Assembly (NCBI RefSeq): GCF_054482595.1
Contig: NZ_CM137008.1
Reading direction: 5' to 3' (one strand)
DNA length: 64,000 bases
Below the pieces are notes generated by a model that saw nothing but the letters and a program-made list of their open reading frames with translations, was not told where the DNA came from and made no database searches. Below, one piece after another: positions 3,620-51,853 of the stretch (position 1 is the first letter of the stretch; each line of letters starts with the position of its first letter). The translations under genes were made by a program, and so were the position numbers.

Positions 3620-4393
3620 TCAGGCGTCGACTTTATCCAGCGGCCATGAATCAAACAGATAGCCGTCAAAATAAATATCGTCAACGTTCGAGAATTCCAG
3701 CAGACGTTGCTTAACGTTTTCCAGATGCTGCCACATTGCCAGCTTCGCCGCTCGGGCATCTTTTTTGATTAACGCGGCGAGGATCTGTTTGTGATCGCCC
3801 AACCACTCTTTGCGATACAGGCTGTCATCCAGATGGCTGTGCAACTGGATCCACATTGGATTGTTTTCCCGCCACTGCCAGGACTGACGGAATAACTCCA
3901 CCAGCATGCTGTTATGCGTTGCTTCGGCAATGGCGAGATGGAACTGCATATCACCGCTTTCGCTGCTACCCGGCGCGCTGGAAGCCAGTTCACGCTCTTC
4001 CAGTTGCAATGCCTGACGCATTTTGACGATATCTTCGCGGGTAGCCTGCAGGGCGGCAAACTCGGCGATGTTACTTTCCAGTAACTGACGCGCCTGTAAC
4101 AGCTCAAAAGGACCCGCATCATTGCAGACGTTGGCATCCGGACTGTCTGTGTTGTGGCTGCCTGAGCTATCAAGAACATAGATACCGGCACCCCGGCGCA
4201 CTTCCACCAGCCCTTTGATCTCCAGCATGATCAGCGCTTCACGTACCACCGTCCGCGTGACATCAAGCATTTCTGCAATTTCACGCTCCGGCGGCAGCCG
4301 TTCGCCAGGATTGTACGGCGTCTTTATGATCAGATCGCGGATCATCGCCCCGACTTCCTGGTAAGGTCTTTGCGCAGAGGTGGCAGATTTCAT
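3620..4393 (-). CDS. uxuR: GntR-family repressor of hexuronate utilisation UxuR
   Basis: 257-aa ORF with an N-terminal GntR-type HTH (ERLPPEREIAEMLDVTRTVVREALIMLEIKGLVEVRRGAGIYV) and an FCD-type C-terminus; adjacent to uxuB-uxuA. Confidence 0.85.
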   Translation of the reverse strand: MKSATSAQRPYQEVGAMIRDLIIKTPYNPGERLPPEREIAEMLDVTRTVVREALIMLEIKGLVEVRRGAGIYVLDSSGSHNTDSPDANVCNDAGPFELLQARQLLESNIAEFAALQATREDIVKMRQALQLEERELASSAPGSSESGDMQFHLAIAEATHNSMLVELFRQSWQWRENNPMWIQLHSHLDDSLYRKEWLGDHKQILAALIKKDARAAKLAMWQHLENVKQRLLEFSNVDDIYFDGYLFDSWPLDKVDA

Positions 4394-4607: not shown

Positions 4608-6068
4608 TTACAGCGCAGCCACACACTCGCGCGCACCGCGTTCGCACAGCTGCTGATATGCCGCAGTCACCGCGCCAACAAAGTCGGCATTCTGCGGCAG
4701 ATCATCGGCAAAAATACCGCTCAGGCCCAGCAGCGCTTTCACGCGGTCTGCGCCCTGATACTGCGCGTTAATCTTCTGGAACTCGGCCAGCATCGGGTCG
4801 ACCACGTCAATGGCATTACCCTGCTCATCCACGCCCTGGGTGTAACGCATCCAGCCAGCCACGCCCAGCGCCAGGTGACGCCAGCTGCCGCCGTTTTGCA
4901 GGTGCAGACGCACCGGATCCAACAGACGCTGCGGTAACTTCTGGCTGCCGTCCATCGCAATCTGCCAGGTACGGTGACGCAGAGACGGGTTGCTGAAACG
5001 CTCGATCAGCAGCGTCGCATAGGCGTTCAGGTCCGTACCTTCCGGCATCGACAGCGTTGGCGCTTGTTCCTGCATCATCAGGGCAAAGGCCGCTTTGCGA
5101 TAATCCGGGTTAGTCATGGTGTCGGCAATAGTTTCATAGCCGCCGAGGTAACCGAGGTATGCCAGGAAAGAGTGGCTGCCGTTCAGCATACGCAGTTTCA
5201 TCATTTCGAACGGCACAACGTCTGCAACGAACTGTGCGCCCACTTTATCCCAGTCCGGACGACCATTAACGAAGTTATCTTCAATCACCCACTGACGGAA
5301 CGGTTCGCAGGCAATGGCGCACGGGTCGTAAACACCCAGCTGGTCAGCAATTTCCTGTAAGGTTTCTGGCGTCGCCGCCGGAACGATGCGGTCAACCATG
5401 GTGCACGGGAAGGTGACGTTCTCTTCAATCCATGCCGCCAGCTGCGGATCACGCGCCTGAGCCAGCCCCAGAACCGCGACCTTTGCCACATGACCGTTCT
5501 CACGCACGTTGTCGCAGGACATGACAGTAAACGCTTTCAGCCCTTTTTCACGACGCAGACGCAAGGCTTCGACGATGTAACCAATCGCGGACTTCGGCGC
5601 AGTCGGGTTTTCCAGATCGTGCTTGATCAGCGGGTTATTGAGATCCAGTTGACCGCTTGCCGCATCAGCGCAGTAGCCTTTTTCCGTGACCGTTAGAGAG
5701 ACAATCGCCGTTTGCGGACGCGCCATCGCGTTGAGAATACCTTCGCAGCCGTCGATTTCCGGATGCAGCGCTTCTTTCATCGAACCGATAATTTTCAGCT
5801 CGGTGCTTTCCGCGCCTTTTTCCGCCACGGTGTACAGCAGTTGCTGTTTTTTCAGGTTTTCGATCAGCACGCGGTCGTTGCCTGGCATCAGGTTAACTTC
5901 GCAGATGCCCCAGTCGCTGTCGGTGCTTTCCAGCAGATGATGGGTATACAGCGCCTGGTGCGCGCGGTGAAACGCCCCGCAACCGAGATGCACAATGCGT
6001 GATTCCAGACGAGAATGATCCCATGACGGGCGGGCAACCGGCAGATTGCTGTCAACAATAGTAGTCAT
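4608..6068 (-). CDS. uxuB: D-mannonate oxidoreductase
   Basis: 486-aa ORF with an N-terminal Rossmann motif (HLGCGAFHRAHQA) typical of the mannitol/mannonate dehydrogenase family; immediately downstream of uxuA on the same strand. Confidence 0.9.
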   Translation of the reverse strand: MTTIVDSNLPVARPSWDHSRLESRIVHLGCGAFHRAHQALYTHHLLESTDSDWGICEVNLMPGNDRVLIENLKKQQLLYTVAEKGAESTELKIIGSMKEALHPEIDGCEGILNAMARPQTAIVSLTVTEKGYCADAASGQLDLNNPLIKHDLENPTAPKSAIGYIVEALRLRREKGLKAFTVMSCDNVRENGHVAKVAVLGLAQARDPQLAAWIEENVTFPCTMVDRIVPAATPETLQEIADQLGVYDPCAIACEPFRQWVIEDNFVNGRPDWDKVGAQFVADVVPFEMMKLRMLNGSHSFLAYLGYLGGYETIADTMTNPDYRKAAFALMMQEQAPTLSMPEGTDLNAYATLLIERFSNPSLRHRTWQIAMDGSQKLPQRLLDPVRLHLQNGGSWRHLALGVAGWMRYTQGVDEQGNAIDVVDPMLAEFQKINAQYQGADRVKALLGLSGIFADDLPQNADFVGAVTAAYQQLCERGARECVAAL

Positions 6069-40482: not shown

Positions 40483-40629
40483 GACTGACCTCTGAAATGA
40501 ACGTACGGTGTTATTGATAATGATGGAAGGTATGCAGTGACTGTTCAGGGAATGACGTAGCCGTATATTTAGTTTTCTGTTCAACATATTGTCTCCATAC
40601 CTGTCGGGACGGCTTTGGCAGGCCGGCAA

Positions 40630-41310
40630 TCACAGGTTAAAGGTGTTGATAAGTTTATGGATGAAAGAGAAATGTGGCAGGGCGGAGATAAAACGCTCTT
40701 CAGCGACCAGACTGTGGATGTGGCCTCTCCGTTCAAACCGTTCTGATGTCAGGCTGACTGATTTGATATCTGCCAGAGGAAAGACCTGCAGTTTTCCCTT
40801 CTGTAACGCGATCAGATACCAGCTACCGCTGTAATAAATGAGCCGGCAGGGCTCCAGTGACGGATACCATCGCTCAGTCATCAGAGAGATGTGGATACAC
40901 TGTCTTATTGCCAGGATGAGTTGCGAGAAACACTCGGGGAACGTTGCAGTGATATCCGGCGCCGGTAGCCAGATAAGGCAGGGAGAGGGCTCCTGGTTGT
41001 CGGTAAGACAGGTTATCAGTCGTCCGTTCCGGAGCGGAAGTATCCGTGCGATCCCGGTATTCTGTATAAAAGAAAGCATTTCAGGGATCGCACCTGGGCT
41101 GCTCTGTCGTCTGAGGCTGTACCTGCCATTTCTGTACTCTAAATCCAGGTGAACCAGACGCTGATGAAAATCGCGCTGTAAAGTACGTTCTGTAACGCCA
41201 AATTCATCTGACAGTGTTTTTAGTGACAGAGATTCTCCGGCCATCAGTCGGCTGATAATGAGTGATAAGCGAACCGCCAGGCGATCATGCCGGGAACGAT
41301 TATCAGACAT
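40630..41310 (-). CDS. WYL-domain transcriptional regulator (YfjR-like, HTH)
   Basis: N-terminal HTH (RHDRLAVRLSLIISRLMAGESLSLKTLSDEFGVTERTLQRDF) followed by a WYL-like region (SGSWYLIA). Confidence 0.65.
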   Translation of the reverse strand: MSDNRSRHDRLAVRLSLIISRLMAGESLSLKTLSDEFGVTERTLQRDFHQRLVHLDLEYRNGRYSLRRQSSPGAIPEMLSFIQNTGIARILPLRNGRLITCLTDNQEPSPCLIWLPAPDITATFPECFSQLILAIRQCIHISLMTERWYPSLEPCRLIYYSGSWYLIALQKGKLQVFPLADIKSVSLTSERFERRGHIHSLVAEERFISALPHFSFIHKLINTFNL

Positions 41311-41512: not shown

Positions 41513-42397
41513 TCAGAACAGACGCTCCCACAGTGTGATCAGCAGGTGGATAATGCGGTCCCGGGCTTTACGCAGAAGCTGTAACATCCAGGCCGGAAAA
41601 CTGAAACGGGCAACGGCGACGTCAAAACTTTTCCCGATGGTTTCACCAAAAGTCTGTTGTGCGTGTTTCTGGGCCTGTTCAGAGCGGTTTTCTCCCCGGA
41701 TATGTGAATACACCGCGCTGGTTGCCTGTGGTGGCAGTGCGTGGATCATCAGCGACACAAACGCCGGAAGGTTCCAGCCGACAGGTGCAGCAACGGAGAG
41801 TACCGGAAATGATGAAGGGAACAGGGTTGCCACCCGGGCTGTCACCGTCGCCAGTGAGAGCGCCTGCTGACGGGACGGGCATTTTTCTGTGGCATTCCAT
41901 TCTTCAGCAGGAAACACGCGATCGGCATGGCTGAGAACAAACAGAAAACGCGAGGGATCTGCGCCTTCATTCAGTAAAAACTGATGCATGGTAATGTCGG
42001 CGGCATACGCGCGTTCATCTGCCCGCAGGATCCAGATAATCAAATCCACTTCCGGCAGTAACTGACGGTAAAGCGCCCGGTATTCCTGATCATGTTGCGG
42101 CGTCTCTCCAATGCCGGGCAGATCGACCAGCGTCATTCTGCGTTCACCGATCTGCAGGGTAAGACGATGAGCCTGGCGGGTGCAGCCGTTCAGGGGATGT
42201 GTGGCACAGATATGGGACTGAAAAATAGCATTACACAGGCTACTTTTGCCGGTGCCGGATTTACCCATAATGCCAATCACGGGTTCGTAATGAATAACGC
42301 TGTGGAGATGTTCAAGAATTTTCTGACGAATTTCTTCAGGAAGAAACGTCAGATATGATTTCACTTGTGCGGAGAGGGAAGAATGGCTGAATGACAT
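41513..42397 (-). CDS. GTPase of the YeeP/YfjP/YkfA family
   Basis: P-loop GIMGKSGTGKSSLCNAIF, G3 motif LVDLPGIGET. Confidence 0.75.
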   Translation of the reverse strand: MSFSHSSLSAQVKSYLTFLPEEIRQKILEHLHSVIHYEPVIGIMGKSGTGKSSLCNAIFQSHICATHPLNGCTRQAHRLTLQIGERRMTLVDLPGIGETPQHDQEYRALYRQLLPEVDLIIWILRADERAYAADITMHQFLLNEGADPSRFLFVLSHADRVFPAEEWNATEKCPSRQQALSLATVTARVATLFPSSFPVLSVAAPVGWNLPAFVSLMIHALPPQATSAVYSHIRGENRSEQAQKHAQQTFGETIGKSFDVAVARFSFPAWMLQLLRKARDRIIHLLITLWERLF

Positions 42398-42581
42398 ACC
42401 GGTATCCTGTTGATTTCACTGAACCGGATCACACTAATCCGGTTTATCATTCAGGTAATATGGACGTGAAAAATGATGGAATGTCTGAATTACGGATATT
42501 ATTGTTAAAGTGTAATGGAGTATGAAGTGAGTTTTTCAGAACGGGAACTAATGACATACTGCGGTTTCAGGAGATGAGAGG

Positions 42582-43712
42582 ATGACCGGACGTAAAAACA
42601 AATGCGTCAGAAAAAATTGTAACAATCAGGTTTTCTCAGTAAAAATGGCAGTGGAGAAAAGACTGTGCAGAAAACATTATGAGAGGTTTTGTGAGCTCAA
42701 AAAAAGAAGAGAGCAAAATCCTGTTCACAGATTAAATGAAGCATTGCCAAGAAAGATAAAAGGACCCAAAAGTAAGAAAAAATTAGTAAAAGAAAGAGAA
42801 ATCATTAACAGCAGGAAGAAACATAAACAGGAGCAGGGACCATCGCTGGTTGAACTTAATAAAAAAGTTCGTGAGATACTGAAAACTCCGGCATGGAGAA
42901 CGCTGGAAACGAGAATTCGAAGAAACGGTATCACATTTAAATCAAAAGCAGAGTTAGATGTACTTTCTGAACTTTATGCAATTTATTCATGGGTTTCATA
43001 TTGCAAACGGAGCGATAATTATTCTGTGTGGTTTTTGAATTGTCCGGATGTAAATATAAATCTTCATGTGTGCGAATGCAGGTCTTCTGAAAGCGATTGT
43101 TATCTACCATCCCGTTTTATTATTCTTCCAGCTCCATTAAGGCAAAAAGTAAAAAGAAAATACCCTGCTAATTCGTCTGGAGTGTCAGGATATAGTGATT
43201 CAAAAAGTCTTTATAAGACTGTTTTGTCTGTTTGTGGTGGGAAAAGAGAAACCGAATTGTTCTTTTATTCACTGCCAGTAAAGACTAATCATCATCCTTA
43301 CTGGATTAAAAGTGGTGTGGTTAAAAGATTTCCGCCTATTTTTGGCTTGTTGTTTTATGAACAGGAAAGGTTAACAGGAGGTGTTTTTCGTTATGTGTTG
43401 ATAAAGTTTTATAATGCTTTTAAGGAGAATTTGTTTTTTGTTGAGATTATCTCGTGCTGTTTTCTTGTTGAGTTTTTTCATGATATTGATTCATTTTTTA
43501 TAAATCAACGATTAAGTAAGTTGGAAATTTTTATAGATAAGTGGAGGGAGGGTAAAGAAATCTGGATAAAAGCATATCTACAACTGATACATAATGCATT
43601 GGGAATAACTGAAACAGAAAAACTCGTCAATCTATATAATTCATTTTTTACTGATAAAGTGGTTCTCTGGGATGAATCAGTAAAAAAAGTTAAGTGGATT
43701 TATGAGAAATAG
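42582..43712 (+). CDS. Hypothetical protein, Lys/Arg-rich N-terminus with CxxC pairs, very AT-rich
   Basis: 376-aa ORF; N-terminal KCVRKNCNNQ ... CRKHYERFC and a strongly basic stretch; no homolog recalled. Confidence 0.35.
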   Translation: MTGRKNKCVRKNCNNQVFSVKMAVEKRLCRKHYERFCELKKRREQNPVHRLNEALPRKIKGPKSKKKLVKEREIINSRKKHKQEQGPSLVELNKKVREILKTPAWRTLETRIRRNGITFKSKAELDVLSELYAIYSWVSYCKRSDNYSVWFLNCPDVNINLHVCECRSSESDCYLPSRFIILPAPLRQKVKRKYPANSSGVSGYSDSKSLYKTVLSVCGGKRETELFFYSLPVKTNHHPYWIKSGVVKRFPPIFGLLFYEQERLTGGVFRYVLIKFYNAFKENLFFVEIISCCFLVEFFHDIDSFFINQRLSKLEIFIDKWREGKEIWIKAYLQLIHNALGITETEKLVNLYNSFFTDKVVLWDESVKKVKWIYEK

Positions 43713-44252
43713 CACCATTTAACTGAAAGCTACCATAACGTCTTTTTGATCACACGCATGATAATGCGTCTCATTTAAATTTCGTTTTTTGGGTCATGGA
43801 AATTTTCCGAACATCAGTGATAATGAGGGTTTTGTTGTTTTTGTTTCTGCAATGTTTGAGGGCTGTTCCTGGAGACGATTCGTTGCTTGTGAGCAAGTGG
43901 TGGTCCGCTTTACTGGACGAGTTTTGCATTTGTTGAGTGGTGAAATGGAAGTAAAAAGAGCCCCTTTCTGGCAATGACTGAAAAAGTCAGTAGCGTGTAA
44001 CAGTAAAAACTAACATAAAGTGATTATCGTATGATTATGACAATAACTTATAACTTTTATGAAAAGAACAACAGAAACTACGAAGCCATAACAGATTCCT
44101 GAGACCATGTTTTCTGAGGTAGAGAAAATAATTCAAGAGTAAACCAGTTTGTTTTTTGGTCAGTAAAGAACCATGCCTGATGTGAAAACGGGTAATCAAC
44201 ATTCAGTCTGCATGGATGTTTGGAAGAGTTGAGAATGTCGGTATGATACTAT

Positions 44253-44324
44253 ATACACGTATTTTTACTAAGCATTTCAGTAAGTGTTATACACGTATTT
44301 TTACTAAGCATTTCAGTAAGTGTT
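44253..44324. repeat. 36-bp tandem direct repeat (2 exact copies, then a degenerate third)
   Basis: atacacgtatttttactaagcatttcagtaagtgtt occurs at 44253-44288 and 44289-44324, followed by atacacgtattttcataaacacttctacaagtgtt...; lies in a ~1.25-kb ORF-free stretch. Confidence 0.8.
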
Positions 44325-45228
44325 ATACACGTATTTTCATAAACACTTCTACAAGTGTTTTCGTTAAGCATTGCTATACACATCCAGTTTAGTAAATCTT
44401 TACGTTAACTAAATCAGTTTAATGCTGCTGTAAAACCTTTCTGCTTCAGCAATCAATCTGCTATTCGATTTTACTGATGTTACGTTTAACCTTTCCTGAT
44501 ATTTCGAGTTTCGACGTTAGCATGAGAAAAGTATCTTTACGCTAAATCAACCCGAACTTTCCTGAAGTAATCTGACGTTCTTTTCGATGTGCTTACGACG
44601 ATTCTGTTAAACGACTTTCTGGATGTTTTGATAACAATCAGATTTAGGCATTAACGATTCCTGACGTTTTTCTTTTCCGTGTAAGGTCATTGTTTTCGTC
44701 ATGATGTGACTCTTCTTGCATTGCGAAAGTGTGATGAACGGTTTTGGTGTTTTGATTCAGATGAAGTTTACGTTATCGATGGTTAATCGTTTTTATGGTG
44801 CGTAGTGAAACGTAACGCTTTCAGGAAGGGAAAATCGATTCTGATGGGGATGATCGTGTAACGGCGTTATCTGTAAACAGGTTTTAAACATGTCATTCGC
44901 ATCCGTGATTAAGTTGTGTGATTAAGCTGTAGGTTTTGGCGTTGTTGTTGATTTGCATTACCAGGAAGCGTTCTGGTTGCGTTTCTGGTGTTTTGTTTGA
45001 ATGTTCTGTGGATCCTTTTCCCTTCTGACTTTTCTCGTTGTCCATGTCGTTTTTAAATCCATTCGCTGTTCTTGAGTGTTTTTACCCTGTGTGTAGGATT
45101 ATCTTTTTGTTCCGTTTCAATCACTCTTAATCAGAAAGTTGTAGCATTGCTCAATGCCGGATGCCGTAAAGTTTTACCGCGGTGATTAATGATGTGAAGT
45201 CAATCCAAATCAACGGAGATCTCTCATC

Positions 45229-45960
45229 ATGAATCAACCAATACACAATGCTTACTGGTTATCCCGTTTTGAAAGTATTCTCAACGGTGCCCTGGCGCAA
45301 CACCGTGCCGTCTCGTTAATCCGGGTGGATTTACGTTTCCCTGAGTATATGCCTGCCACCATCATGGATACCGATTTAGATTCAGCGGTGATTTCTCGTT
45401 TTTTTGCATCCCTGAAAGCAAAAATTCAGGCTTACCAGCGGAAAAAACGACGTGCCAACAAGCGTGTGCGTGCAACCACTCTGCGTTATTTCTGGTGTCG
45501 GGAGTTTGGCAAGGAAAAAGGCAGGAAACATTATCACGTGATATTACTGCTCAACAAAGATACCTGGTGCTCGCCAGGGGATTTCACCGTTCCTTCTTCG
45601 CTGGCGACGCTGATCCAACTGGCATGGTGCAGTGCTCTGCATCTTGAGCCCTGGCAGGGTAATGGACTGGTTCACTTTTCCAGGCGGACGCCTTTCCGTA
45701 AACCGACATCATCTGATGCTCGCCCTTCTTCCGATGATACGCCTGTGCCTGGTGGATGTTCTGATACCCGGAAGGATTCTGACAAAAAATCTGGTGGATC
45801 CGCTGTTCTCTGGGTCAAGCGTGGTGATGTGGAAGCGATGCAGAAAGCCATGGAGAGAGCCCGTTATCTCGTGAAGTATGAGACGAAGCAGCATGACGGT
45901 TCTGGTCAACGTAATTATGGTTGCAGTCGTGGGCTGGGGCGTCTACTGGATGGCAGGTGA
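45229..45960 (+). CDS. YagK/YfjJ-family protein (inovirus Gp2-type)
   Basis: 243 aa; region RYFWCREFGKEKGRKHYHVILLLNKD resembles the YagK/YfjJ family of CP4-type elements. Confidence 0.45.
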   Translation: MNQPIHNAYWLSRFESILNGALAQHRAVSLIRVDLRFPEYMPATIMDTDLDSAVISRFFASLKAKIQAYQRKKRRANKRVRATTLRYFWCREFGKEKGRKHYHVILLLNKDTWCSPGDFTVPSSLATLIQLAWCSALHLEPWQGNGLVHFSRRTPFRKPTSSDARPSSDDTPVPGGCSDTRKDSDKKSGGSAVLWVKRGDVEAMQKAMERARYLVKYETKQHDGSGQRNYGCSRGLGRLLDGR

Positions 45961-46287
45961 ACCCTGTAAAACAGCATCCGATGCCTGAGTTTATGCCAAC
46001 GCCCTTAGCTCGCTTTCTGAAAAGTCGTCCTGAAGTAATGCAATGGATTGCCATCTACTTCCGTTCGTGACACATAAGTCGAAAAACCTTTGGTTGTTCT
46101 GGTTATTTGCATTTACTGCCATTCATAGAAATGAACAGATCGATTGGTAGGACTCAAATGTTATAGCGTCTCTCTTCTCATAGTCTGCTTTGTACCAGAC
46201 GCGGAATCCCCTAATGCTGGTGTACAGGTTCTGACTCATTTCCTCCCCCACTTTCATCCCGTTATACTGTGAAAAAAGGAGGTAGGC

Positions 46288-47166
46288 GTGAAACTGAAAA
46301 TGCAGGATTTGAGGCTGTTTAATATTGTGTTCGAGAGCGATCCTGGCTGGATACTGGATTTCTCTAACCGCACCTTGTCTGCTTTTTTCGATGAAGAATT
46401 GAACATTGATATTGATGATGAACGTTATCAGAAAGAGGGGACGTCAAAAGCCAAACGAGTTAGATGCTTGCTGAAACAGGTTGATCGTGAGACCGCTCTG
46501 CGGGTTCTTGGTGCGCTCTGGCAGTATAAAACGGAATCCATGCCTGAACAGGCTGAACAAAGCCGTAATGACTATCTTGCACTGATTTCCCGCTTAGAAA
46601 ACGCTGACACCGATGAAGCCAAAGGCGTTAAGCCTGTCCAGGCATGGCATGGTGTTGACTGGCATTCACTTATCGCTGAAATGAACGAGATGAAATCTCT
46701 GCCGCCACATCCACGTGGTTTTCGGTTTGAAGCCTGGCTTGCTGAACTGTTCAGTATCTTTAAGCTTGCTCCCCGTTCGTCTTTCCGAAATACAGGCGAA
46801 CAGATTGACGGAAGTTTCCGACTGAATGATGAATTTTACCTGATGGAGGCAAAGTGGCATCAGAAAAGAACGTCGGCTGCCGACCTCCATGTATTTGAAG
46901 GAAAGCTCAGTACCAAGGCAACCTGGACACGCGGTGTTTTTATCAGTTGGATGGGCTTTACGCCTGAAGGCCTGACGGCTTTTGGTAAAGGGAAGCGGGT
47001 TATCTGTGTCAGTGGTTATGATCTTTACCACTCACTGAATCATAGGATCCCTTTACCCGACCTTCTGGATGCTAAAACCCGGCACGCGGCTGAAACGGGA
47101 GAGCCCTATGCTGAGTTCGACCGACTATATGCACTGAAAGACAAACAGTTCGGCACGCTGAAATAA
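46288..47166 (+). CDS. Mrr-like restriction-endonuclease-domain protein (PD-(D/E)xK), N-terminal domain unknown
   Basis: 292 aa; C-terminal half contains [27 protein letters not shown], fitting the (D/E)-x-GIDG ... x-A-K-(R/W) pattern of Mrr-type catalytic domains. Confidence 0.45.
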
Positions 47167-47180
47167 CGGGTTGGGAAGCG

Positions 47181-47794
47181 ATGACCTGCTCCCCGTTGTT
47201 TCACACAGAATCGTGTACAGGGTCGAAGTTCTGGCTCAATGTGCTGACTGAACTGAAAAACCGCGGTCTGAACGATATCCTCATCACCTGTGTAGATAGC
47301 CTGAAAGGCTTTCCAGATGCCATCAACACAGTATATCCGGAGGCCAGCATCCAGTTATGCATCGTGCATATGGTGCGCAACAGCCTGCGCTTCGTGTCAT
47401 GGAAGGACTACAAAGCCGTCACTCGCGACCTGAAAGAGATTTAATCAGGCACCCACGGAAGAGACAGGCTAGCAAGCACTAGATAAGTCGGAGCTGGCAG
47501 GCTAACTGACCGAATCTTACCACGTTCTTCGCTTATCTGACGGACATTCGCAAAGTGCGCTATACGACGAATGCCATCGAGTCACTAAACAGTGTGATCC
47601 GCCATGCGATCAAAAAGCGTAAAGTGTTCCCGACAGACGACTCGGTGAAAAAAGTGGTGTGGCTGGCAATCCAGTCTGCGTCCCAGAAATGGACGGTGTC
47701 GTTGAAGGACAGGTGTATGGCAATGAGCCGCTTTATTATCGAGTTCGGTGACTGCCTGTCACTTCTGAAAAAAGGCATTTACACAGAATCCTAA
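47181..47794 (+). pseudogene. IS256-family (mutator-type) transposase, fragmented
   Basis: Two short ORFs (…[47 protein letters not shown]… and …TNAIESLNSVIRHAIKKRKVFPTDDSVKKVVWLAIQSASQKW…) resemble the C-terminal half of IS256-family transposases, broken by stops. Confidence 0.5.
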
Positions 47795-47913
47795 ACAGGT
47801 TCCGACATTCCCCACTCATACTAAACACCTTGTCACTTGACGCAGGGCTGAACATTTTACAACAACGGTATACCAATATGATATTGGTTTACTAAATTTT
47901 TTGGGAATCCCTC

Positions 47914-48796
47914 AGGGAATTTCTCCCTATACTTCCAGACATCTGTTATCATTTAACCCATTACTGATCCGCTGCCGCATATATACCTGCGGCGAGCGAT
48001 AACTTAGAACTATGCTGCATTGTAATGTTCGATTGCTACTGCATGGTTATGCAATGCCGTCATTAACATCTGGCTTGGGCATGAACACGATGTAGTCACG
48101 CTTTATCGTTTTCACGAAGCTCTCTGCTATTCTGTTACTCTCCGGACTCCGCACCGCCGTGTTCTTCGATTCAAGTCCCAACATCCGAGCGAACTGGCGT
48201 GTTTCATTAGCCCGGTAGCATGAACCATTATCTGTCAGCCACTCCACTGGAGACGCCGGAAGCTCGTTGCCGAAGCGGCGTTCCACCGCTCCTGGCATGA
48301 CGTCCTGTACTGTTTCACTGTTGAAGCCGCCGGTAGTGACCGCCCAGTGCATCACCCCGGCAATAAGGGAGCGTGCGCTATCCACTTTTTGCACGTCCAT
48401 ATTCAACGGCTTCTTTAATGAGTTCATTTTCCATCGTTTTGTTCCGGGCAGGCGCTGGCGTTCTTTAATCTGCCTTATGGCAGCAGCAAGTTCAGAGGCA
48501 GGAACGATCTGTTCCCCAGCAGTCACCGCAGTAAGACTTCCCTCCTGGTATTGCTTGCGCCAGAGAAGTAACTGGCTGCTACACCATGTTGCCGGGCAAC
48601 GAGGGAGACCGTCATTCCTGGTTCAAAGCTCTTCTGAACATTAGCGATCTTTTCCTGTGCAGTATGCCGTCTGAGTTTCTCCGGTCCTGAGGCATCAATC
48701 ATCTGTTTTCCAATGACCAGTCTAAAAACTAATATTAAGATTATCACTTATTTAAGTGATATTGGTTGACTGGAGATTCAGGGGGCTAGCCTATCC
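47914..48796 (-). mobile_element. IS2 remnant with internal deletion (pseudo)
   Basis: Ends resemble the IS2 termini (…ccagacatctgttatcatttaaccc… and …ctggagattcagggggctagccta); encodes truncated InsD-like (159 aa) and InsC-like (74 aa) fragments; ~0.88 kb versus 1.33 kb for intact IS2; left boundary approximate. Confidence 0.65.
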
Positions 48797-48922
48797 GGGA
48801 AAGTTCACTCACTTTGAATGAAGTAAATATTAAGTATCACATTTTGTGATGTAGCCATTATTTTTATAAAAAATCACCTGATAGGATTTATCATAAGTTA
48901 ATGATAAGCAGAGTATTGATAG

Positions 48923-49363
48923 ATGAGCAAGAAGAAGTTTTCTGTTGAGAATGAAGATCTCTCTACTGTTCGTACATCACTTCTTAATTCCAACCTTGTC
49001 CGGAAGTTGATCATGGAAATGTCTGATGAAGACTTCAATCAAGTTAAGGATAACCTTGAAAAGGCCATTGAGCAGCGTAATGAGTTGAAGGATTCTTTGG
49101 CAATTATCAAAAAGTACATGGATGACGCAGGTGTAACGGCGGAAGATGTGTATCGTGAATTTGGCAAAAAATTACAGACGGGCAGAAAAAACGATTCAGG
49201 AGAGTCTAATAAGTACAGGTATGAGTATAACGGTCAAATAATGTACTGGAGTGGACAAGGTCGTCGGCCTTCTGTTATTGCAGAAGCAATAAAAGCCGGA
49301 GGTTCTCTTGATGATTTTCTTATATCTCAGGGCACATCATCATCTTGTTCTGATTATGAGTGA
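48923..49363 (+). CDS. H-NS-family nucleoid-associated protein paralog
   Basis: 146 aa; N-terminal coiled-coil-like region and a C-terminal DNA-binding motif YWSGQGRRPSVIAEAIKAGGSLDDFLI, close to the H-NS TWTGQGRTPAVIKKAM...SLDDFLI signature. Confidence 0.65.
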   Translation: MSKKKFSVENEDLSTVRTSLLNSNLVRKLIMEMSDEDFNQVKDNLEKAIEQRNELKDSLAIIKKYMDDAGVTAEDVYREFGKKLQTGRKNDSGESNKYRYEYNGQIMYWSGQGRRPSVIAEAIKAGGSLDDFLISQGTSSSCSDYE

Positions 49364-49631
49364 TACATCTAATCGGTTGAATGTTGCTGTAATGCTCGCT
49401 TTTGATGCTTATATGGCAGCGTTACCGTTTATTGTTTTAGTTACAAATTGGTCGTCATGGACATAACCTGAAATTATAACTATCATCGGGTCTTTCAAGT
49501 TGCTTATGCATATAACGCCAGGGAGGAAAACGAGAGTTAAAAAATTGAACTGTTCTCATAGAGACTGTAATTTAAATTGTGTAATTGCCGGTTTTTGATA
49601 TGTTCACTCCAACAACGTAGACAAGTAGATT

Positions 49632-50139
49632 GTGGACGAAAAGACGCTTAAAGTCCTTGCGGCTGAACTGGCTAAAGGCCTCAAAACCGGGGCCGATCTC
49701 AATCAGTTTTCCCGTATGCTGACGAAATTAACTGTCGAAACGGCGCTTAATGCGGAACTCGGTAACGGCTGCAGATGTTCCTGCTCTGGTGTATGCTCAG
49801 CATCCTGTTTTGGTGCGGCGAAGACATGGAAGCGGCGGGAGAACCCCAGCGTATTAACCGCAAAGTTAACTTTGCACCGTTGCCCGGCAACCTCCACCTC
49901 AACTTCGCCCTAGTCGTGCTGGAGCTGGTATCCAGGCTGAGTTTCGAAGCGAACTGTTCTTTTTGACGGACGCATTTTACGTTTGGGCTGGATGTAGTAA
50001 CGCAGCATGGAACGTCCGCCCGTATAACCCATTGCCTGACCGTTCGTTCAGAGCAACCAATCTGAGTCGCAATATCGACAATGTACGCGCCCTGCTGGCG
50101 CATTTGCTTTATCATGTAAAAGTCCTCTCTGCTCAGCAT
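49632..50139. pseudogene. Transposase fragments (HTH N-terminus on - strand; IS256-like piece on + strand)
   Basis: MLSREDFYMIKQMRQQGAYIVDIATQIGCSERTVRQW on the - strand looks like a transposase HTH; MDEKTLKVLAAELAKGLKTGADLNQFSRMLTKLTVETALNAEL on the + strand resembles an IS256-family internal segment; both are broken. Confidence 0.3.
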
Positions 50140-51171
50140 GTTGATGTCATTTCTGGTGTGAGAACCTTAAGGAAACAACATGTTGGGTGGAGCGGAAAAT
50201 CCAAATGGTGACCGTCTTATTATCGCTGGCGCTGACACCTGAGCGATCACCTTTAATATGGTAGCAATTACACTGAATTACTTACAGATTCGTTATAACG
50301 AACCTCTGTACATAATTATGAAACAGATTTGTATTTACATAAAACATGGATATTTTTAATTTAGGTTTATTACTATTATTATACTCACTCCCTTTTTGAT
50401 ATAATCTCTATTGTTATTTACTTCCTGTCTTTACTCACTCTCTGTTCCTGTTTTCAGTGAAATAATAATTTATTTTAATTTTATCCATCATGAGCTGTAT
50501 TTGCTTAACAATGATTGTTTGCCTGATATGTTTTAACTATTCTGGTGAACATCAATTCTCTGTCATCACTGATTAACTGAATGCTTACGCTTTGATAAGG
50601 TATCCATGATTCCGTCATGTTTAACAGCGCAGAATAAACAATGAAATTAACAGAGTGAATTCCTGATTATGTTTGTTTCGGGTTGTATTGTTTAAGATGC
50701 AGAGTAAAAATCATGCCAGTGGTATTTTTTACTCTGGTAATGTGTGCGGTTAACGTTCATGTCCTTAAGAACAGATTGGATGAGGGCGTATAAGTTTATT
50801 GCGTTGGCCTTGTTCACGTTTTTTTAGAACCACTGAGAGCAAGTTTGTAGTTTATGATTGATTGGTCGAAATATATTTCTTAACCTTCTGGTTGTGGGTT
50901 TTTATCGCGTGTTTTGCAGTATTTCGTGATGTTTATTGATTCTGTATTTTATTCGCTCCTCGTTTATCTCATCTCTTTAGCTAATACCATCAGATAATCC
51001 ATTTATTTCTGCACAACGCTACGTGTCGTTAATAACCGACGTATCCATTCTGTTACAGCATGCCTGATAAATACCGTCTGTAAGTTATTACCGTTTTAGA
51101 TCTGATTATGAGCGAAAGCATTAATTCGTTTACAGCACTTAAAACGTCATTAACTTTCAGGAGTCATCAGC

Positions 51172-51738
51172 ATGCCTAAATCTTACACACCAAACTGGTT
51201 TTTTACCGCTTTACTTGACAATCACATCAATCAAATGATGGCACGCTATTCCTGCCTGCGGGCCTTACGCATGGATTTCTTCTACAGGAAAGATACGCCT
51301 GATTTCTTACAACCTGATCATCGCTGGCTTGAATTGCAGTTGCGTATGCTGCTGGAGCAGGTGGAACAATTTGAAAATATCGTTGGCTTCTTCTGGGTGA
51401 TTGAATGGACGGCTGATCATGGTTTTCATGCGCATGCGGTTTTCTGGATCGATCGTCAGAGGGTTAAAAAAATATATCCCTTTGCGGAGCGGATTACGGA
51501 ATGCTGGCGGTCTATTACGCATAACAGTGGTTCGGCACACCGCTGTACATATCAGCCGCATTATACATACAACATCAACATTCCTGTGCGCCACAACGAT
51601 CCTGAAAGCATCGATAATATTCGCGGTGCCCTGCATTATCTGGCGAAAGAAGAACAAAAAGACGGGCTGTGTGCCTACGGCTGCAATGAAGTTCCTGAAC
51701 GTCCTGCTGCAGGGCGTCCTCGTAAGCCTCACTTCTGA
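51172..51738 (+). CDS. YagK/YfjJ-family protein, second paralog
   Basis: 188 aa; FFWVIEWTADHGFHAHAVFWIDRQ parallels the HYHVILLL region of the 45229 gene. Confidence 0.4.
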   Translation: MPKSYTPNWFFTALLDNHINQMMARYSCLRALRMDFFYRKDTPDFLQPDHRWLELQLRMLLEQVEQFENIVGFFWVIEWTADHGFHAHAVFWIDRQRVKKIYPFAERITECWRSITHNSGSAHRCTYQPHYTYNINIPVRHNDPESIDNIRGALHYLAKEEQKDGLCAYGCNEVPERPAAGRPRKPHF

Positions 51739-51853
51739 AAGTTTGAATCATGAGTTTCCTGGCCCGGAAACACTTAGTCGGTAAAAACTTACCTCGATGA
51801 TTAATGATGTGAACTGAAGTCAACGGAGATCATTCACCCTGAACCTGCATCCG

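Follow-up and report, generated by a model that had tools for sequence, protein, structure and literature searches.

A probable control region and long leader upstream of a YagK/YfjJ-type gene in an Escherichia coli genomic island

Results

A gene-free stretch of ∼1.5 kb precedes a YagK/YfjJ-family gene

We analysed a 64,000-nt stretch of DNA (the window; NCBI RefSeq assembly GCF_054482595.1, contig NZ_CM137008.1) and, within it, the non-coding stretch that lies in front of a genomic-island gene of the YagK/YfjJ ('inovirus Gp2') family, here called gp2. An earlier interpretation made from the letters alone (the sequence-only reading) had pointed out that 43977-45228 holds no open reading frame (ORF) of 60 aa or more. 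This is correct, as the longest complete ORF encodes 58 aa (44216-44392) and runs across a set of tandem repeats. The full gene-free gap is larger, ∼1.5 kb from 43713 to 45228. Its left edge is the end of a gene for a 376-aa Lys-rich protein (42582-43712, + strand) and it is followed by gp2 (45229-45960, + strand); further to the left are a GTPase gene (41513-42397, minus strand) and a WYL regulator gene (40630-41310). The sequence-only reading thus placed the stretch correctly between the Lys-rich and the YagK-like genes, but the divergence it described is that of the Lys-rich gene (+) from the GTPase gene and not from the YagK-like gene.

Between 33 and 36% of composition-matched shuffles of 43977-45228 likewise have no ORF of 60 aa or more, so the lack of ORFs is expected of non-coding DNA this AT-rich. 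The unusual feature is the length of the non-coding stretch, not an avoidance of ORFs. The region has a GC content of 33-42%, its flanking genes one of 50-56%, and a skew of the + strand towards T over A and G over C begins at about 44500.

The product of gp2 matches PF11726 (YagK_YfjJ_C) with an E-value of 5.5e-37 and also matches PF23343 (REP_ORF2-G2P). The motifs of an HUH-type nuclease are present, namely the HUH triad itself (H101-Y102-H103) and a candidate catalytic tyrosine (Y213), and modelling indicates that the YagK/YfjJ family has the HUH nickase fold. Among solved structures, no relative of the Gp2 protein could be detected by sequence.

Distribution and modularity of the block

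By BLAST, the stretch is present in 1877 of 5426 complete E. coli genomes, at 3755 places with a median of two per genome, and in four plasmid records. A phage origin was ruled out, since no phage record carried the stretch and no relative was found among viral contigs. The gene order was constant in all copies inspected: a minus-strand operon (GTPase-WYL-antirestriction-RadC-CbtA) is followed by a variable unannotated cassette, 1.5-1.7 kb of gene-free DNA, the Gp2-family gene on the + strand and variable cargo. Homology among distant E. coli copies extends from about 44120, ∼15 bp to the left of a conserved site described below (motif 1), to the start codon, and this shared block always adjoins a YagK/YfjJ ('inovirus Gp2') gene. 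The DNA directly past the Lys-rich gene (43713-44127) is an allele-specific spacer that cannot be aligned with distant E. coli copies; it belongs to the variable cassette and lies outside the shared block. Full-length copies of the block measure 1066-1239 bp, none of them with a large deletion. An invariant 20-mer of the block was found in only two of about 100,000 species-representative genomes, and the block is restricted to the E. coli lineage. A contig labelled as a 'Bacillota bacterium' metagenome-assembled genome (MAG) (L018, JAEYLX010000008.1) also carries a block of the E. coli type, in which motif 1 occupies 133-145 and the invariant 20-mer 740-759; this contig is probably Enterobacteriaceae DNA that was mis-binned into a Bacillota MAG.

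The middle of the block (44765-45088) is dispensable. In four loci (L010, L011, L012 and L014) it has been swapped for unrelated DNA, and these loci keep the first 645 bp of the block at its 5′ end and its final ∼140 bp. The replacement DNA in L010 and L011 carries a 531-bp gene on the minus strand. In L010, a perfect hairpin with a 10-bp stem (GAACAGTTTAAAGAGTATAAACTGTTC) lies at 4737-4763, about 90 bp past the end of the retained 5′ module (4644), with the 3′ end of the inserted gene shortly after it; transcripts coming from a promoter in the 5′ module would probably stop there.

The retention of the 5′ part as a unit, where the rest has been exchanged for DNA with an opposite-strand gene and a strong hairpin follows, would suit an independent non-coding RNA (ncRNA) gene. 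On this explanation the 5′ module (44128 to about 44764) would specify an unstructured, U-rich RNA of ∼0.5-0.7 kb with a role separate from gp2, either in trans or as a decoy, and the T>A and G>C skew of the + strand points in the same direction. However, the skew is not common to other lineages, the hairpin of L010 may be no more than a terminator belonging to the inserted gene, and, as set out below, the DNA drifts neutrally and has neither an Rfam family nor a stable fold nor covariation. We therefore consider an ncRNA gene very improbable.

The block diverges neutrally except directly before the start codon

To judge how fast the block evolves, we compared nine copies (36 pairs) and took the four-fold-degenerate sites of the flanking genes as the yardstick. 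Mean pairwise identity of the block was 0.876, compared with 0.911 at the four-fold sites of Gp2 and 0.896 at those of the GTPase gene. The block contained a further 23-167 gap columns per pair, with none in the sole identical pair. Segregating sites made up 33% of the block and 29.8% of the four-fold-degenerate sites. These two comparisons exclude purifying selection over the block as a whole. Because the block diverges no more slowly than the synonymous sites of its flanking genes, the fact that it can be aligned reflects shared ancestry and not function; the islands are simply young paralogues. A non-coding block that is alignable over thousands of island copies is here no evidence of function.

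The only sub-block clearly under purifying selection is formed by the ∼70 bp before the ATG (45160-45228, + strand), which include the ribosome-binding site GGAG (45215-45218). Here we counted one to four segregating sites per 40 columns where about 12 were expected (P 1e-5 to 3e-3). A dip in variation at 44747-44796 was marginal, and the repeat zone did not deviate significantly.

Most of this proximal sub-block has been duplicated. A 56-bp copy of 45166-45221 is found at 51781-51831 with 77% identity, upstream of the next gene of the operon (a 191-aa ORF that precedes alpA), and the same duplication is present in L013 (5874-5924). The duplicated ∼55 bp before the Gp2 ATG read …GTAAAGTTTTACC…TGATTAATGATGTGAA…CAACGGAGATC and enclose a two-codon mini-ORF, ATG-ATG-TGA (45190-45198). 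They may constitute a shared translational or regulatory signal.

No hidden gene, known RNA or conserved fold

A missed or decayed gene was ruled out by three results. The 3-base periodicity of coding sequence is absent (substitution phase rates 0.296, 0.282 and 0.284), the six frames of the block gave nothing in Pfam at E ≤ 1, and tblastn searches of the block with YfjI, AlpA, YfjH and the neighbouring proteins of distant loci returned only matches with E > 0.3. In K-12, the YfjI gene sits upstream of yfjJ.

The sequence-only reading had also proposed a non-coding RNA locus, for which we obtained no support. No Rfam match at E ≤ 1 was found within 43977-45228, and the folding z-scores of 120-nt windows on both strands (−2.4 to +1.7) correspond to background. 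Likewise, an alifold scan of the nine-copy alignment gave consensus energies near 0, with a best z-score of −2.6 among 70 windows, and no conserved structure. A known RNA family, a stable RNA or single-stranded DNA structure and a conserved fold thus all failed as explanations. A weak terminator-like hairpin, followed by GGTGTTTTGT, is present at 44964-44986. Haplotypes differ there by a compensatory change of a G-C to an A-T pair, which is a single event in just two haplotypes.

We also considered how the stretch, if it is a leader, came by its composition and length. Selection against Rho termination does not account for its composition, as the skew is not common to other leaders, long or short. 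Growth by ancient internal duplication was rejected on the basis of self-matches that were no better than those of shuffles, and no homology was found between the long leaders of E. coli and of L027.

A two-part module recurs upstream of the gene family

Distant Gp2 homologues (36-43% protein identity) in Providencia, Brenneria and other Enterobacterales have the same divergent layout. Their gene-free gaps are mostly about 400-750 bp long and contain no DNA that can be aligned with the window. Nevertheless, a short site, motif 1 (ATAAYTCCAGAGT = ATAATTCAAGAGT; consensus ATAAYTCCAGAST), recurs in them. In the window it lies at 44128-44140 on the + strand, with one mismatch. We derived the pattern from L015, L016 (Brenneria) and L017 (Providencia) and checked it on fresh held-out loci. 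The other E. coli alleles and L015, L016 and L017 have a single exact motif 1 per locus, on the strand of Gp2; among the held-out loci, it is exact in L025 and L027, has two mismatches in L026 and is absent from L022-24. By chance, an exact match in 1.5 kb of one strand is expected with a probability of about 9e-5.

The second part, motif 2, resembles a promoter. As read from the window sequence, it consists of a −35 hexamer TTGAGA (44229-44234), a 17-nt spacer and a −10 hexamer TATACA (44252-44257), covering 44229-44257 on the + strand, and is thus a weak match to a −35/−10 pair with 16-18 nt spacing on the strand of the gene. All alleles retain an extended −10 element, TGATACTAT (44244-44252, TGnTACTAT), which overlaps motif 2. 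Every lineage that we examined has a motif 2, roughly TGTYKGATWGGTAWTATAT, among them K-12 at yfjJ and yagK as well as the loci of Morganellaceae. The distance between motifs 1 and 2 is 93-98 bp in the distant lineages and 116-117 bp in E. coli; these spacings span half a helical turn, so that no claim about helical phasing of the two motifs is possible. A profile of the module (motifs 1 and 2) gave one match per locus, always upstream of the gene. In the window this match is at 44125-44262 (E 2.6e-6), and nothing else scored under E 7 in 356 kb. The comparison thus revealed a two-part cis module upstream of the uncharacterised YagK/YfjJ family, of which the literature we searched makes no mention. 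In distant islands alpA directly follows Gp2, which suggests that the promoter would serve a gp2-alpA module.

A degenerate copy of the module can be made out by eye upstream of a second Gp2-type gene (51172-51738), at 50644-50744, and was missed by the module profile. It consists of AAATTAACAGAGT at 50644-50656 (nine of 13 matches to motif 1) and GGTAATGT at 50737-50744, with the 93-bp spacing of the distant lineages, and is followed by a ∼430-nt gene-free leader.

A promoter in the corresponding place is on record for K-12. The yagL-yagK spacer contains a sigma-70 holoenzyme 'constitutive promoter', TTTAGA-16-TATAAT, identified by genomic SELEX (systematic evolution of ligands by exponential enrichment) and flagged for H-NS (Shimada et al. 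2014, PMC3946193). Judging from its sequence, this promoter appears to be the motif 2 of yagK. Like the region in the window, it is AT-rich and lies upstream of a YagK/YfjJ-family gene; the yagK sequence TTTAGAtgttggataggtattaTATAAT aligns by eye with TTGAGAatgtcggtatgatactaTATACA of the window, and a motif-1-like word (TAATTGCAGAGTAAC) is located upstream of it. In contrast, the yagK leader is only 189 nt long compared with ∼970 nt in the window, there is no tandem repeat, and K-12 has no DNA similarity to the block.

The 36-bp tandem repeat is not kept in related islands

The tandem noted by the sequence-only reading is real and far beyond chance. Tandem Repeats Finder reports a period of 36 with 2.4 copies, 100% matches and a score of 172 at 44252-44337 (+ strand; unit TATACACGTATTTTTACTAAGCATTTCAGTAAGTGT), and a degenerate continuation with 64-73% identity to the unit follows at 44334-44383. 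Degenerate repeat words (TACAAGTGTTTT, GTTAAGCATTGC and TATACACAT), whose number and order vary among alleles, occupy 44338-44392 on the + strand, and a palindrome within them (AAACACTT-CTAC-AAGTGTTT, 44341-44360) is lost in L004-type alleles. As TATACA lies at 44252-44257 and transcription would start near 44259, the unit begins with the −10 hexamer and the tandem covers about −7 to +79 of the predicted transcript.

Relatives with 99.5% identity span 1216 bp where the window has 1252 bp, a difference of exactly one unit (1.4 units in the nearest relative). With a two-unit query, none of the 5426 complete E. coli genomes gave a match of 99% or better, and the best records were all 36 bp shorter; the duplication is therefore private or very rare. 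A window-type promoter and repeat allele with one unit is present, for instance, in enterohaemorrhagic E. coli O157:H7 86-24 (H124, H125). Across alleles, the repeat zone is made of short words (TACACRTATTTT, ACTAAGYATTT and TAAGTGTT) in variable number and order, which could have been the substrate for slippage or unequal exchange.

Nothing comparable was found when repeats were sought elsewhere. L001 and L002 showed no significant repetition (P 0.69 and 0.74), the former value being that of the nearest relative without the duplication. No word was common to eleven lineages beyond the shuffle null, and ACACRT was not above the null as a universal iteron word. A triplicated 7-mer was present in the regions of only three of 12 lineages (nominal P 0.02-0.07), and lineage-specific triplicated words were likewise rejected as iterons. 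Of the features of an iteron array, the locus has an adjacent gene for a putative replication initiator, judged by its HUH motifs and modelled fold, but not three or more direct repeats that are kept. The 36-bp tandem is not a conserved device. The iteron-like array that the sequence-only reading suspected was given up on these grounds: compared across homologous islands, the tandem itself is not kept, which is essentially the lack of conservation that the sequence-only reading had named as speaking against it. Its suggestion of a regulatory site fared better in part, as the repeats sit on a promoter-like element that recurs upstream of the gene family in several genera, although the array itself is not conserved.

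Discussion

A control region and long leader of the gp2 operon

We favour the explanation, to which we assign a probability of roughly 60%, that the stretch is the control region and long leader of the gp2-orf-alpA operon, with gp2 as a yagK/yfjJ-type HUH nuclease gene, in a P4/CP4-57-like genomic island. The control region would contain motif 1, a 13-nt site that is conserved across genera, and, about 117 bp downstream of it, a sigma-70-type promoter (TTGAGA-17-TATACA) that resembles the yagK promoter of K-12 and is probably silenced by H-NS like other AT-rich island DNA. If motif 2 fires in vivo and the transcript reaches gp2, the stretch would be transcribed as an mRNA leader, which we consider probable. 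The predicted leader (44258-45228, + strand) is ∼970 nt long, untranslated and T-rich on the + strand, with a neutral body. Some 850 bp between the promoter zone and the initiation region would represent an insertion specific to the E. coli lineage, neutral and replaceable, and the constrained ∼70 bp directly before the ATG would be the translation-initiation region. The 36-bp tandem would be a recent duplication of roughly −7 to +29, beginning in the −10 hexamer and brought about by slippage or unequal exchange between short repeated words. Through the two additional TATACA boxes and the 36 extra nt that it brings to the 5′ end of the transcript, it may modulate the output of the promoter in this strain. 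Most of this is ordinary: a long, AT-rich, neutral leader with a strain-private duplication.

Several observations weigh against this explanation. In L010-type alleles, the minus-strand gene and the hairpin stand between the promoter and gp2. The gene is therefore evidently expressible without the distal promoter. That promoter might then give rise to a transcript of its own or, in E. coli, be a vestige. The −10 element, whether TATACA or TACTAT, is weak, and a consensus scanner found promoter-like sites in the region no more often than in shuffles; the site that it did list is TTGGAA-16-TATGAT at 44220-44247. A comparison within E. coli, of low power, showed no significant reduction in the variability of motifs 1 and 2 relative to neutral sites. 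Furthermore, the link between motif 2 of the window and the K-12 yagK promoter is an alignment by eye, and with the module profile K-12 yagK scores no better than E 9.3, while yfjJ and L022 go undetected.

Another view is that the stretch is functionless filler, decayed or inserted DNA that persists only through the youth of these islands, with an ancestral promoter module that is vestigial in E. coli and a gp2 that is driven from elsewhere. The neutral divergence, the frequent indels and the replaceable middle would all agree with this, as would the mutated motif 1 of the window and the low scores of window-type alleles (the window, L001, L004 and L007) with the module profile, 26-30 bits compared with about 50-56 bits for the other E. 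coli alleles. On the other hand, most E. coli alleles have kept an exact motif 1 and a motif 2 despite having lost all other similarity to the distant islands, the range of 1066-1239 bp leaves no full-length copy with a large deletion, and no remnant of a gene is detectable. Mere filler therefore seems rather improbable to us.

Could the block be an origin?

The HUH fold predicted for the adjacent protein raises a different possibility. The block could be its origin, either the rolling-circle double-strand origin of the excised island or an origin of transfer (oriT), with motif 1 as the nick or recognition site. Rep would then bind the short repeats at 44252-44392, which would also autoregulate the promoter, as is the case in pMV158, geminiviruses and parvoviruses. 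Binding of HUH initiators to direct repeats, near the nick site and on their own promoter, is common, as exemplified by the nic locus of pMV158 RepB with its direct repeats, the iterons of geminivirus Rep and the repeats bound by parvovirus NS1 and adeno-associated virus (AAV) Rep. The window shares with these origins a gene for a protein of modelled HUH nickase fold immediately downstream, short direct repeats at the promoter and a conserved site about 100 bp away; moreover, the 13-nt motif 1 has an asymmetric sequence that is conserved across genera and always lies upstream of the gene, on its strand. In contrast to these origins, the window has repeats that are not conserved and no conserved hairpin at the candidate nick site. 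Each lineage has different inverted repeats near motif 1, and the folding z-scores lie around 0, so that no conserved hairpin presents the motif. Repeats vary in number and sequence and do not exceed chance in most lineages, and the exact tandem is strain-private. The approximately fixed distance between motif 1 and the promoter suits a role in transcription no less well.

The region upstream of gene II in filamentous phages offers another parallel, as the window likewise has a long non-coding region directly before a Gp2-like gene. The intergenic region of the Ff phages is densely structured, with packaging and origin hairpins. The block differs from it in its background folding energy, its lack of conserved structure and its absence from phage records.

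The position of the block also has some resemblance to that of an oriT. An oriT typically occupies the first intergenic region found on the upstream side of the relaxase gene, and the 'leading region' is by definition on the other side (preprint 10.64898/2026.01.13.699239); in the window, the other side of the block is taken by the antirestriction/RadC operon. The same preprint reports that many islands of E. coli have an oriT only. Islands of this type ('iOriT', e.g. TAI with oriT_rM6; Ares-Arroyo et al. 2026 preprint) are of the same general kind as the one studied here, with an integrase, no annotated relaxase and defence or anti-defence cargo near a non-coding region; this likeness is one of island type. 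However, transcription of the antirestriction operon leads away from the block and, by our own reasoning, this is opposite to what genes expressed from the transferred single strand would need. The origin or oriT idea is thus live but unsupported, and it centres on motif 1, not on the repeats; we regard it as doubtful.

A more specific form, in which the YagK/YfjJ HUH nuclease nicks at motif 1 (ATAAYTCCAGAGT) and the module is the replication or transfer origin of 'immobile' Enterobacterales islands, seems similarly doubtful. If true, it would cover a very large class of islands, comprising many pathogenicity islands and the CP4-57/CP4-6-like elements. Once AlpA has driven their excision, such islands would undergo rolling-circle replication or mobilisation by their own minimal Rep-type relaxase, and the antirestriction operon opposite would serve as the leading region. 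The motif pair together with the predicted HUH fold provides a concrete DNA site for asking whether these very common islands replicate or transfer by their own nuclease.

Other observations at the locus

A weak Rfam match to c4-a1b1, the targets of P1/P4-type C4 antisense RNA, was obtained at 40586-40629, close to the 3′ end of the WYL regulator gene. With 18.5 bits (E 0.48), it stays well under the gathering score and is probably noise, though the island is P4-like.

The unit of block and Gp2 gene is flanked by cargo hot spots on both sides (42398-44127 and 45961-51171; L002-L011). No match to the left cassettes was found in Pfam, PADLOC or NCBIfam, so neither a defence system nor an NCBIfam identity could be assigned to these variable cassettes. 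They come in at least three alternatives: the 376-aa Lys-rich protein of the window, a 407-aa protein or a convergent pair of 316 and 262 aa. The cargo on the right varies as well and consists of an Mrr-like endonuclease, a TIR protein, ireA or an nSTAND NTPase.

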